The translations under genes were made by a program, and so were the position numbers. The notes below the pieces were generated by a model that saw only the letters and a program-made list of their open reading frames with translations, did no database searches and was not told where the DNA came from. Of a stretch of 64,000 nucleotides of DNA, positions 42,439-46,027 are shown one piece after another. Source of the DNA: Candidatus Poribacteria bacterium (GTDB lineage Bacteria > Poribacteria > WGA-4E > PCPOR2b); assembly GCA_965116925.1 (NCBI GenBank), contig OZ220744.1, forward strand, positions 6,302,589-6,366,588, written 5' to 3'. The stretch's first letter is position 1; each line of letters begins with the position of its first letter.

Positions 42439-42744
42439 CTAACGCTGCTGGGCTTCCATATACGCCCGCAAGACTGCGTTCATACGTGTCTGGTAACCGC
42501 TTCCATGAGATTTGAACCACTCTAAAACATCGCTATCCACGCGCAAGGATATGGCACGCTTCGGTTGTGGCATCACGACTTGAGCATTTGCCCAAAACGT
42601 CTCATCCGTTGGTTGGGCATCCGCATCTGATGCAGCTGCTACTTCAATCTCGGACTCAGTCATATTTTTGACATGCTCCCAATCTGTCTGTGAATCCTTT
42701 GGGAGGTTATTTAGAGAATATCTCAAAGTATTTTTTCCTTTCAC
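42439..42744 (-). CDS. brnA: BrnA family antitoxin
   Basis: ISLRVDSDVLEWFKSHGSGYQTRMNAVLRAY. Confidence 0.9.
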   Translation of the reverse strand: MKGKNTLRYSLNNLPKDSQTDWEHVKNMTESEIEVAAASDADAQPTDETFWANAQVVMPQPKRAISLRVDSDVLEWFKSHGSGYQTRMNAVLRAYMEAQQR

Positions 42745-42982
42745 GGCGATTTGCTCTCCTTGCTGAGATTATACGCCAAATGCCGTCTCGAATGGTGTAG
42801 ACAACATACAAGATGACATCCTCGACGGTGCCCATCGCGGCGATTCGTTTTTCACCATAGTTATGGCGATTATCAACTACTGTGAGTGTTGGACGCTCAA
42901 AGATACGCACTGCATCCACAAAATCAATGCCGTGCTTTTCAATATTACGCTGGTTTTTGATCGAATCCCATTCAAATTCCAT
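42707..42982 (-). CDS. brnT: BrnT family ribonuclease toxin
   Basis: FEWD..KN..N..KHGIDF...YGEKR...RIISARRAN..ERK.Y. Confidence 0.9.
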   Translation of the reverse strand: MEFEWDSIKNQRNIEKHGIDFVDAVRIFERPTLTVVDNRHNYGEKRIAAMGTVEDVILYVVYTIRDGIWRIISARRANRRERKKYFEIFSK

Positions 42983-43921: not shown

Positions 43922-44006
43922 AGTTGAGTTTCAATTCTGTATGTAGTCCTTCACTACTATCAATGATGATAAAAATGTTTGAGGGGTTTCCTTGCCCCGA
44001 TACATG

Positions 44007-44073
44007 AGGCGAATGGTTCAACCCATTCGCCTTTTTTATTAATTATCCCGGAAAGACTGGTAAGAGATAACCC
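44007..44073 (+). repeat. About 66-bp direct repeat (terminator-like hairpin plus tail); second copy at 45962-46027
   Basis: aggcgaatgg-loop-ccattcgcc-T run...gaaaga(c/t)tggtaag(ag)ataaccc in both copies. Confidence 0.8.
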
Positions 44074-44228
44074 GATTTTTTTTCAGACAAGCTACTCTGA
44101 ATCCTGATCGCAGCATCTGGGAAACATGGTTTAAGGAAAAATTCAATTAATTTTCCCAAAATCATAAAAAAGTGCTAGAAAAAATCACAGAACTGTGTTT
44201 TATAAAGTGTAAGGGAGGAATCAGAATA

Positions 44229-45698
44229 GTGGCTAACGACAAGGCACTCATTTCCCGCGCCCAATCTGGAGATGAACAGGCATTTGCTGACCTGATGCGG
44301 GCGAATTATGCCTTCGTTTATGCGATCGTCATCGGAATTATGGACAATCCCCACGATGCCGAGGAAGTTGTCCAAGACACCTTTCTGAACGCCTATCATG
44401 GTTTGGCACAGTATGAAGAGCAGACCAAATTCAAAAGTTGGTTGGCAACAATTGCGCGAAATCGTGCGCTAAACTGGTTGCGAGAACAAAGAATGGATAC
44501 CGTGTCCATCAACGAAGTGGAGGAGCACACACTTCAGGCTCCGAATACGCTCGACGACCAGTTGATACGCGACGAACAGAGAGAGCTGATTCGCCGTGCA
44601 ACAGAAATGCTTTCGCAAAAAGATAAAGAGATTGCTCGCTCTTACTATCTTGATGGTGCAAGCTACGACGAATTGACGAAGACGCACGGATTGTCATACA
44701 AGGCGATTGCGTTCCGGCTGTCACGTGCGAAGCGGAGACTCGCCAAACGATTGCAATACCTGCTTACTGGTTTATCTGTTCCTCCTGCAACGACACTCAA
44801 ACAGATCTACTCAGGAGGATTCACCGCCATGAAAATCGGAACAGCTCTTGCCAACAGAGGCAAAGTCCGAGATCTCTATGACCTCGGTGAGGAATTATTA
44901 ATTATCTCAACAGATCGGATTTCGGCGTTTGATGTTGTGCTGCCGAATGGGATTCCGTACAAAGGGCAAATCCTGACCGGACTCTCTGAGTTCTGGTTTG
45001 ATTACACAAAACCGATTGTCGATAATCATATCATCACGACCGATGTTTCGCAGTATCCTGACGTGCTGCAAGCGGACGCGGAAGTGCTTAAAGGGCGATC
45101 AATGCTTGTGCGGAAAGCCAATCGAATCGATATCGAATGCGTCGTGCGAGGGTACATCGCGGGCTCCGCGTGGTCGGAGTATAAGCAGGATGGAACGGTA
45201 TGCGGCGAAAAGCTGCCGGCAGGGCTAACCGAATCAGAGCGGTTGCCAGAACCCATCTTCACTCCTTCTACGAAGGCGGAGCATGGTGAACATGATGAGA
45301 ACATCTCAATTGCAGAGATGGAGGCGGAGATTGGAAAGGAGTTGTCAGAAAAGATTATCCAAACCAGTTTCGCGCTGTTTGAAGCCGCGAGCGAACATGC
45401 CGAAAAGTCCGGAATCATCCTCTGCGACACCAAGTTTGAGTTCGGGGAGATTGACGGTCAACTGATTCTCATTGATGAGGTCTTCACCCCCGATTCATCA
45501 CGCTTTTGGCCCAAGGACGAATATAAGCCCGGTAGCTCCCCACCCAGCTTTGACAAACAGTATGTTCGTGATTACTTGAGTGATATTGGATGGAACAAAG
45601 AGCCCCCGGCACCTGAGTTGCCAGCAGAGGTCATCCGCCAAACCAGCGAAAAATATCTGGAGGCGTATCGCCTGATTGTTGGGCGGGAATTATTGTGA
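44229..45698 (+). CDS. purC: ECF sigma-70 factor fused in frame to SAICAR synthase (PurC)
   Basis: N-terminal DAEEVVQDTFLNAY...FKSWLATIARN...SYDEL...RLSRAK; C-terminal RGKVRDLY, TDRISAFD, ECVVRGY, DTKFEFG, TPDSSRFW, SFDKQYVRD; internal RBS and ATG at 44829. Confidence 0.85.
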   Translation: MANDKALISRAQSGDEQAFADLMRANYAFVYAIVIGIMDNPHDAEEVVQDTFLNAYHGLAQYEEQTKFKSWLATIARNRALNWLREQRMDTVSINEVEEHTLQAPNTLDDQLIRDEQRELIRRATEMLSQKDKEIARSYYLDGASYDELTKTHGLSYKAIAFRLSRAKRRLAKRLQYLLTGLSVPPATTLKQIYSGGFTAMKIGTALANRGKVRDLYDLGEELLIISTDRISAFDVVLPNGIPYKGQILTGLSEFWFDYTKPIVDNHIITTDVSQYPDVLQADAEVLKGRSMLVRKANRIDIECVVRGYIAGSAWSEYKQDGTVCGEKLPAGLTESERLPEPIFTPSTKAEHGEHDENISIAEMEAEIGKELSEKIIQTSFALFEAASEHAEKSGIILCDTKFEFGEIDGQLILIDEVFTPDSSRFWPKDEYKPGSSPPSFDKQYVRDYLSDIGWNKEPPAPELPAEVIRQTSEKYLEAYRLIVGRELL

Positions 45699-45774
45699 AG
45701 GTTGGGCTGTGATGCTAGACATCTGTTGACGTACTCCCAAACCTAAAGGATTGAGATTCGCACCCATTTCAATT

Positions 45775-45913
45775 TATGGTAGATTTTAGAATTAATAAGA
45801 CACTCCAAAATGCACAACCAACCCCCTAAATCCCCCTTATCAGGGGGACTTTGGAAACTTCGCGAAGGTCGAAGTTATTGGTAAATGTCCACTTATTTTT
45901 AGAATTCACTATA
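45775..45913. mobile_element. TATAGT-family MITE carrying a cccctaaatccccct-tatc-agggggactt palindrome
   Basis: Ends tatggtagattttagaattaat...atttttagaattcactata. Confidence 0.7.
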
Positions 45914-45961
45914 GAATGAGAAGCTAAATTAACCAAAAACTCTATTCCGCAAGACTTCACA

Positions 45962-46027
45962 AGGCGAATGGTTTAATCCATTCGCCTTTTTTATTGATTG
46001 TCGCCGAAAAGATTGGTAAGATAACCC
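45962..46027 (+). repeat. Second copy of the 66-bp terminator-like direct repeat
   Basis: Matches 44007-44073. Confidence 0.8.

Follow-up and report, generated by a model that had tools for sequence, protein, structure and literature searches.

Classification and related systems

Fused extensions are a known mode of regulation of extracytoplasmic function (ECF) sigma factors, as described in sections of two papers (PMC7826278, PMC8999054). According to these sections, the extension of ECF41 contacts the sigma core and gates RNA polymerase binding (PMC8999054, PMC7826278). IutY of Pseudomonas putida and the groups ECF48, ECF52 and ECF53 are membrane-anchored sigma/anti-sigma hybrids, released by regulated proteolysis, and IutY truncated of most of its extension is constitutively active (PMC8999054). 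The extension types named there are SnoaL-like, TPR, Cys-rich, DUF1835 and WD40-like domains and transmembrane helices (PMC7826278, PMC8999054); no metabolic enzyme is named in these sections among the extension types of the 19 ECF groups with an extension, and the full group descriptions could list more (PMC7826278). Sigma factors with built-in sensor domains are in this sense a recognised principle, the sensors known from these sources being binding or repeat modules. The gene described here lies at 44229..45698 (+) of a 64,000-nucleotide stretch of DNA (the window; contig OZ220744.1, positions 6,302,589 to 6,366,588) from a Candidatus Poribacteria bacterium, whose genome (G000) is a single 6.47-Mb contig. 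It encodes one soluble polypeptide, in which an ECF-type sigma factor is followed by a short flexible linker and a complete SAICAR synthetase (PurC), a new kind of partner in that it is a complete, working-type enzyme interchangeable with the cell's own copy. The best explanation of the gene is that it specifies a one-component sigma factor for which the captured PurC would serve as input, and this reading is given a probability of about 0.5. No paper was found in the literature on a fusion of a sigma factor with SAICAR synthetase, nor on sigma-DnaN or sigma-FtsZ fusions in Poribacteria.

The protein resembles the ECF sigma factors with a C-terminal extension (ECF41, for example, as far as the two papers describe it) in having a sigma2-sigma4 core and, in the same chain, a cytoplasmic extension longer than 50 residues. 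What sets it apart is that this extension is a whole housekeeping enzyme, a near-identical copy that goes on exchanging sequence with the native gene. IutY and ECF48/52/53 share with the parent family of the sigma half the layout of sigma factor, one membrane helix and outer domain; the fusion, unlike these, is without a membrane helix (best hydropathy window 0.57), and the parents are without a zinc-finger anti-sigma domain in Pfam. In comparison with stand-alone PurC (yeast Ade1, 1A48/1OBG; Mycobacterium abscessus, 3R9R/6YVQ), the 283 residues of the PurC half match the whole fold of the solved enzymes (E 1.3e-77 and 3.6e-71, respectively), with 1A48 aligned from the first residue of the PurC part. 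In place of the native N-terminal 19 residues, the fusion has a sigma factor and linker of 200 residues. Sigma-DnaN and sigma-FtsZ fusions of the same phylum (G141 and G083; see below) have the same or related sigma lineages and the same plan of sigma factor, linker and essential-protein copy, but their partner is a replication or division protein and not a metabolic enzyme.

Gene organization

The formal open reading frame (ORF), taken from the first GTG, extends from 44172 to 45698 (+) and codes for 508 aa. GTG 44229 is probably the true start, since it and about 75 nt upstream of it are conserved in eight fusion orthologues and five unfused parents, and the ribosome-binding site AAGGGAGGA directly precedes it; the predicted coding sequence then comprises 489 codons and a stop. 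The sigma half (44229..44807, +) contains regions 2 and 4 within 193 codons and ends in ...TTLKQI. It is followed by the linker YSGGFTAMKIGTA (44808..44846, +) and by the PurC half (44847..45695, +), whose 283 codons correspond to residues 20-302 of stand-alone PurC. The sequence across the junction of the two halves reads ...GGFTAMKIGTALANR... The initial annotation had described a single ORF with ECF sigma regions 2 and 4, the linker LKQIYSGGFTAMKIGT and an essentially complete SAICAR synthetase, and both Pfam and the translation agree with that description. On the 508-aa ORF, Sigma70_r2 (PF04542) was placed at residues 41-107 (60.9 bits, cut-off 24) and SAICAR_synt (PF01259) at residues 228-477 (profile positions 3-229 of 233, 250.6 bits). 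About 30 residues separate sigma regions 2 and 4, and Pfam found neither region 1.1, region 3 nor any further sigma domain in the fusion protein at E ≤ 0.001. The extension after region 4 amounts to about 300 residues in the same chain with no stop, beyond the 50 residues mentioned above. Next to the fusion, Pfam identifies genes of the transaldolase and PIG-L deacetylase families and recognises no anti-sigma gene; Pfam often misses anti-sigma factors, and the statement covers these immediate neighbours only.

Origin of the sigma half

The sigma half has 10 full-length paralogues in the genome (70-76% identical at the nucleotide level). In all 10, the frame runs on past ...YSGGLTVMKVGT (...MKVGT) through a hydrophobic helix, which is followed by some 250 additional residues. 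Because all paralogues continue there into a membrane helix, the stretch formerly called a linker is, judged by this comparison, the juxtamembrane stretch of a membrane-tethered sigma family. The parent, a one-component sigma factor tethered to the membrane, is laid out as sigma factor, one membrane helix and outer domain. Type 1, the sigma lineage of the window, was otherwise found only with a membrane anchor. The linker also holds the sequence GGAGGA (44814-44819), 9 nt before the in-frame ATG 44829, proposed earlier as an internal ribosome-binding site and start for PurC. Both elements exist, but in the parent family they encode Ser-Gly-Gly and Met (GGAGG in six and ATG in eight of nine paralogues found by pattern, the tenth having escaped it); they were inherited, not gained for PurC. 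The orthologue in G004 has deleted both and keeps the frame. Internal initiation at ATG 44829 is possible.

A copy of the cell's purC, produced by duplication, entered the first membrane helix of such a parent by recombination, and PurC replaced the anchor and the outer domain. At the junction in G015, the parent reads ...ATC GTT GCA CTC ATT..., purC reads ...CTT GCG CTT GCC AAC... and the fusion reads ...ATC GTT GCG CTT GCC AAC..., from which it follows that the exchange took place within two Ala-Leu codons common to both genes. The seven other type-1 junction forms derive from the G015 form: by in-frame deletions of 12-13 codons (the window and G008; G007; G009), by a deletion that removed YSGGFTAMKIGT and is still in frame with the sigma half (G004), by polar substitutions (G010), and by a tract converted from the native purC (G014). 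Membrane helices usually exceed a hydropathy of about 1.6. By the best 19-residue Kyte-Doolittle window, the eight fusions reach 0.45-1.02 and a parent reaches 2.52, so that none of the eight has a window resembling a membrane helix. The initial annotation had also spoken of a portable sigma module that captured a housekeeping enzyme, and this holds: a copy was captured in frame, and the same sigma lineages have other C-terminal partners.

The ratio of nonsynonymous to synonymous substitution rates (dN/dS) of the sigma half has a median of 0.131 (0.090-0.179) between fusions (28 pairs from eight orthologues), 0.133 in fusion-only genomes (15 pairs) and 0.125 between parents (10 pairs). Constraint on the sigma half was not relaxed after the fusion, and both halves are under purifying selection. 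That every junction variant is in frame, that the hydrophobic remnant was lost repeatedly and that the sigma half is constrained cannot be explained as borrowed through gene conversion. The dN/dS of about 0.13, equal to that of the unfused parents, gives indirect support to the prediction that the sigma half binds core RNA polymerase for promoter-specific initiation. A tree of the sigma parts was set aside as a guide to the order of events; its support was poor, and it did not separate fusions from parents. Outside the window, at G000:C1:2619837-2620037 (-), there is a frameshifted 5' piece (about 65 codons) of a type-1 sigma gene. It is 88% identical to the fusion at the nucleotide level, closer than any full-length paralogue in the genome, and may be the relic of a lost parent copy.

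Distribution of the fusion

Intact sigma-PurC frames, with no stops or frameshifts, were found in 15 of 176 Poribacteria genomes. These are 10 of the 20 genomes of the window's genus, one genome in genus g3 and four of 65 in genus g13. Long open frames in G089 and G097 were considered as fusions and rejected as plain purC genes. Among the best 120 database clusters, 35 combine sigma with PurC domains in Pfam. The interval between the transaldolase-family and PIG-L-family genes (the TAL/PIG-L site) was compared in 17 species. It is empty in six (G001, G003, G005, G006, G011, G013), holds only the parent (the membrane-tethered sigma gene and a gene of 311 aa) in three (G002, G012, G018), holds parent and fusion in two (G004, G015) and the fusion only in six (G000, G007, G008, G009, G010, G014). 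The orthologues at this site in seven other species of the genus are 90-95% identical, and several of the assemblies are single contigs. A recent or assembly-specific rearrangement, as the initial annotation had allowed for, is contradicted by these orthologues and by the recurrence of the architecture in the phylum. An assembler could be misled by two purC copies at 93% identity and by 10 sigma paralogues, yet an assembly chimera joining a sigma gene to purC is hardly conceivable: the same fusion stands at the same site in those seven species, and an exact 508-nt contig from a public sequencing run covers 44435-44942, across the junction (the run may be the source sample). In run X2, from another study, exact pieces reach 44822, and none bridging the junction was found among the matches listed.

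The PurC half and the native purC

The second purC sought in the genome exists as a stand-alone copy at G000:C1:5730793-5731700 (-) and codes for a PurC of 302 aa. Among database proteins, stand-alone PurCs at about 95% identity are assigned to Candidatus Poribacteria, in keeping with a sponge-associated poribacterium as the source. The fused part is identical to it at 276 of 283 residues (98% aa), and the DNA is 93.2% identical, with homology from the Leu codon of LANRGKVRD to the stop codon. In a six-frame search with PF01259 the native purC scored 253.7 bits and the fused copy 252. Six of the seven differences between the two proteins fall in columns that are variable among 26 fusion proteins; in the remaining one, P262 replaces a Ser conserved at ≥ 90%. 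The PurC half is probably still an active enzyme. Its dN/dS is 0.032-0.099 among fusions (28 pairs) and 0.032 against the native copy (one pair, dS 0.34). Along the PurC part of the window, dS against the native gene is 0.13 in the centre and 0.55-0.63 at the ends. The two purC copies of G021 are nearly identical, and the tree signal is mosaic along the gene. The fused and native genes exchange sequence and evolve in concert by gene conversion. Trees of the PurC part were therefore rejected as a way to establish a single origin, the copies being mosaic through conversion; the junction DNA is informative instead. In two genomes, G014 (88% complete) and G134 (84% complete), no PF01259 match other than the fused copy was found.

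In G004 a third, stand-alone purC (L017, 8666-9598) is located 1.2 kb downstream from the fusion, beyond a gene for a HAD-family hydrolase, and encodes an additional Thr-Asn-Leu repeat at its N-terminus (..TNLTNLTNL..). This HAD gene is also found after the fusion in G007 and G005, the G005 fusion being at another site and having another sigma lineage. The protein P0072 (445 aa) carries an N-terminal TIR_2 domain and a complete PurC, joined through a translated 5' leader and the native purC start (..SYKSHKEFQMSQNVITETNL..); either this is a fusion by read-through, or the gene call was extended too far.

Recurrence and sister fusions

PurC is attached to five sigma lineages that share ≤ 39% identity, and two of the five also carry DnaN or the GTPase half of FtsZ. 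In G141, an ORF of 576 aa, located 8 kb from the sigma-PurC gene, joins sigma domains to the full set of three clamp domains (DnaN). The sigma parts of sigma-PurC, sigma-DnaN and a third fusion in this genome are 71-74% identical including the linker (71% between the first two). In G083 an ORF of 406 aa contains Sigma70_r2, Sigma70_r4_2 and a Tubulin/FtsZ GTPase domain, and the sigma-PurC lineage of P0086/G134 is 61-76% identical to the sigma part of sigma-FtsZ. At two of the three g13 loci examined (G141, G119) sigma-PurC is the first gene of a group on one strand that also includes a second sigma fusion and two ABC-2 permeases. Neither the third locus (G175) nor that of the window has this arrangement. 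The G141 locus (L078, G141:C7:119000-138900) is a 20-kb same-strand region with, in this order, TnpB, sigma-DnaN, PhyH, an ABC exporter, PhyH, two ABC-2 permeases, sigma-PurC, a sigma factor fused to an HTH_20-containing tail and two more ABC-2 permeases; G119 repeats the module of sigma-PurC, sigma-HTH_20 and two ABC-2 permeases.

The set of one-chain sigma factors in the genome of the window is unusually large, with 24 of 42 Sigma70_r2 genes in frames of ≥ 400 aa. In 12 of these 24 (loci L053-L064), which were scanned for partners, WD40, LRR, ankyrin, TPR, BNR/sortilin propeller, CarboxypepD_reg, DUF4159 and unrecognised parts were found, one of the two CarboxypepD_reg fusions also having a redoxin domain. 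PurC is the only enzyme copy among the sigma partners scanned in this genome. No sigma-FtsZ fusion was found in the window's genome, which has one Tubulin match, or in its family (29 genomes, no second match with a sigma domain). Second FtsZ-like genes (Tubulin and FtsZ_C) occur at L075, 978-2462 (G002), and L076, 1125-2546 (G014). They were considered as sigma fusions and rejected, their N-terminal 170-190 residues being unrecognised by Pfam.

Proposed function and alternatives

The fusion would act as a cytoplasmic one-component sigma factor with PurC as a built-in input or regulatory extension. The sigma half would still direct RNA polymerase to the promoters of the parent, and the occupancy of PurC by ATP, CAIR or aspartate, or by a binding partner of PurC, would set the availability of the sigma half. 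PurC alone may also be produced from ATG 44829, although the gene would not depend on this. PurC is favoured as the input because fused extensions regulate ECF sigma factors and removal of the IutY extension frees its sigma factor. Since truncated IutY is constitutively active, the untethered fusion would be expected to escape membrane control.

Several observations weigh against this reading. The fusion gene is dispensable, because half of the genus is without it. The Sigma70_r4_2 match (PF08281, residues 138-190 of the 508-aa ORF) scores 25.7 bits, exactly the cut-off of 25.7, and is thus a borderline pass; region 4 of the orthologous parent scores 27.2 bits. The AlphaFold2 model of the whole protein is weak (mean predicted local distance difference test (pLDDT) 63, predicted template modelling score 0.45, pLDDT < 50 over residues 180-216) and has no fixed packing of PurC on the sigma half. 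In trees, the fused PurC of a genome groups with that genome's native copy (bootstrap 95-100 in G000, G008, G015 and G005), it has not diverged towards a dedicated sensor, and the exchange of sequence means that part of the conservation of PurC may be borrowed. A plausible Shine-Dalgarno sequence and ATG lie in the linker, and the g13 fusions keep the entire native purC start, that is the start codon and the stretch before it, so that free PurC may be co-produced there. In RNA data (two metatranscriptome runs), contigs matching the sigma part have 1-2 mismatches, and such libraries can hold DNA. The PurC-part contigs of both runs belong to a relative's stand-alone purC, and no RNA piece bridging the junction was found among the matches listed for the two runs, with 463 pieces beyond those listed.

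The start signals in the linker would fit a gene that simply serves as a second source of PurC, expressed from the sigma cassette's promoter, with the protein made from ATG 44829 or released by processing and the sigma half as a passenger. The product of that ATG would lack only the unstructured N-terminal tail, the yeast Ade1 alignment starting at its residue 7; the complete native start in g13 and the two genomes in which the fused copy is the sole PF01259 match point the same way. The sigma half, however, is as constrained as in the unfused parents, also where only the fusion is present; the Shine-Dalgarno sequence and ATG are inherited family codons, which G004 has lost while remaining fused in frame; no stop separates the halves in 15 of 15 genomes; and the capture of PurC by five sigma lineages is more than promoter capture would need. 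An extra source of PurC with an idle sigma half is rated as rather improbable. The constraint on the sigma half bears equally on the view that the gene is a neutral chimera, which arose by frequent recombination between sigma cassettes and purC and looks intact only through conversion by the native purC. Such conversion is evident from the mosaic trees and the low central dS, the distribution within the genus is patchy, and the genome contains a frameshifted fragment of this sigma type at another locus. Conversion from purC cannot protect the sigma half in fusion-only genomes, though; the frame is kept in all eight type-1 junction variants, what was left of the hydrophobic helix was lost or turned polar on several occasions, and neither a stop nor a frameshift occurs in the 15 genomes. 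A neutral chimera is very improbable.

The PurC half could also be a bait, in the manner of a target mimic or guard: an inhibitor of PurC (a natural product, or a protein of a phage or competitor) or co-assembly with the native enzyme would switch the sigma factor, and the DnaN and FtsZ siblings would act likewise. The close identity of the sigma parts of sigma-PurC to those of sigma-DnaN and sigma-FtsZ favours this, as do the second sigma fusion and two ABC-2 permeases at two of the three g13 loci, with PhyH dioxygenases and ABC exporters nearby; gene conversion keeps the fused PurC near-identical to the real enzyme, as a faithful mimic would need. The literature search found no inhibitor of PurC, including for alanosine with SAICAR synthetase, the locus of the window has no adjoining transporter genes, and concerted evolution is expected from sequence identity alone. 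The bait is regarded as unlikely. The same holds, a little more strongly, for the broader proposal that Poribacteria might use spare copies of essential proteins (PurC, DnaN, the GTPase half of FtsZ) as sensor domains of sigma factors. These would be one-protein alarms for attack or a change of state that trigger defence genes (ABC-2 exporters and dioxygenases in g13), with conversion keeping the bait faithful.

The five captures of PurC and the sister fusions with DnaN and FtsZ point to a rule rather than an accident, and in this uncultured phylum of sponge symbionts transcription seems to be linked directly to duplicates of essential proteins. If so, the fusions would provide a testable model of bacterial surveillance of core metabolism, replication and division, possibly a class of natural sensors mimicking drug targets, and compact parts for synthetic circuits in which the ligand state of an enzyme is the input of a sigma factor.

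Terminators, leader and neighbouring elements

The gene is flanked by a direct repeat, which the initial annotation had given as 66 bp and described as bracketing the gene. The repeat is real (48 nt at 88% identity in a repeat search, 60 nt at 88% by BLAST), but its copies are terminators of the sigma family and not the ends of a mobile cassette. The upstream copy (44006..44073, +) has its stem at 44006-44033, followed by a T run and about 40 nt of conserved spacer, and the downstream copy (45961..46027, +) has its stem at 45961-45988. Each is a hairpin with an 11-bp stem and then a T run. The same hairpin lies 24-58 nt past the stop in eight of the 10 paralogous sigma genes, and in other species it is also present, conserved, in front of fusions and parents. 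Because hairpin and T run follow the stops of the paralogues, the flanking repeats are read as terminators of the sigma cassette. Most simply, the downstream hairpin is the parent gene's own terminator, now parted from the stop codon by an insert at 45765..45915. This insert, earlier noted as a miniature inverted-repeat transposable element (MITE), fits that description: it is multi-copy in the genome (25 copies of ≥ 120 nt, 48 of ≥ 60 nt) and folds into one long hairpin (-47 kcal/mol).

The conserved leader (44154..44228, +), which ends with the ribosome-binding site given above, is nearly invariant in 13 upstream regions (eight fusions and five parents). A related leader of about 65 nt precedes nine paralogues in the genome (..AAAGTGCTAGAAAAAATC.CAGAACTGTGT.TT..TAA.GTGTAAGGGAGG..). 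No sigma-70-like promoter was called between 44040 and 44229. An autoregulated ECF promoter within the leader was considered and rejected, no convincing -35/-10 pair being recognised. In three paralogues TTGACG-N17-TATAAT occurs about 90 nt upstream, so that the conserved leader is probably transcribed; this promoter-like sequence is absent from the fusion. On the other side of the transaldolase-family gene, between it and a DUF6807 gene, the overlapping genes of a BrnT toxin (91 aa, PF04365, 94 bits) and a BrnA antitoxin (101 aa, PF14384, 68 bits) are found at 42439-42982 (-) of the window.

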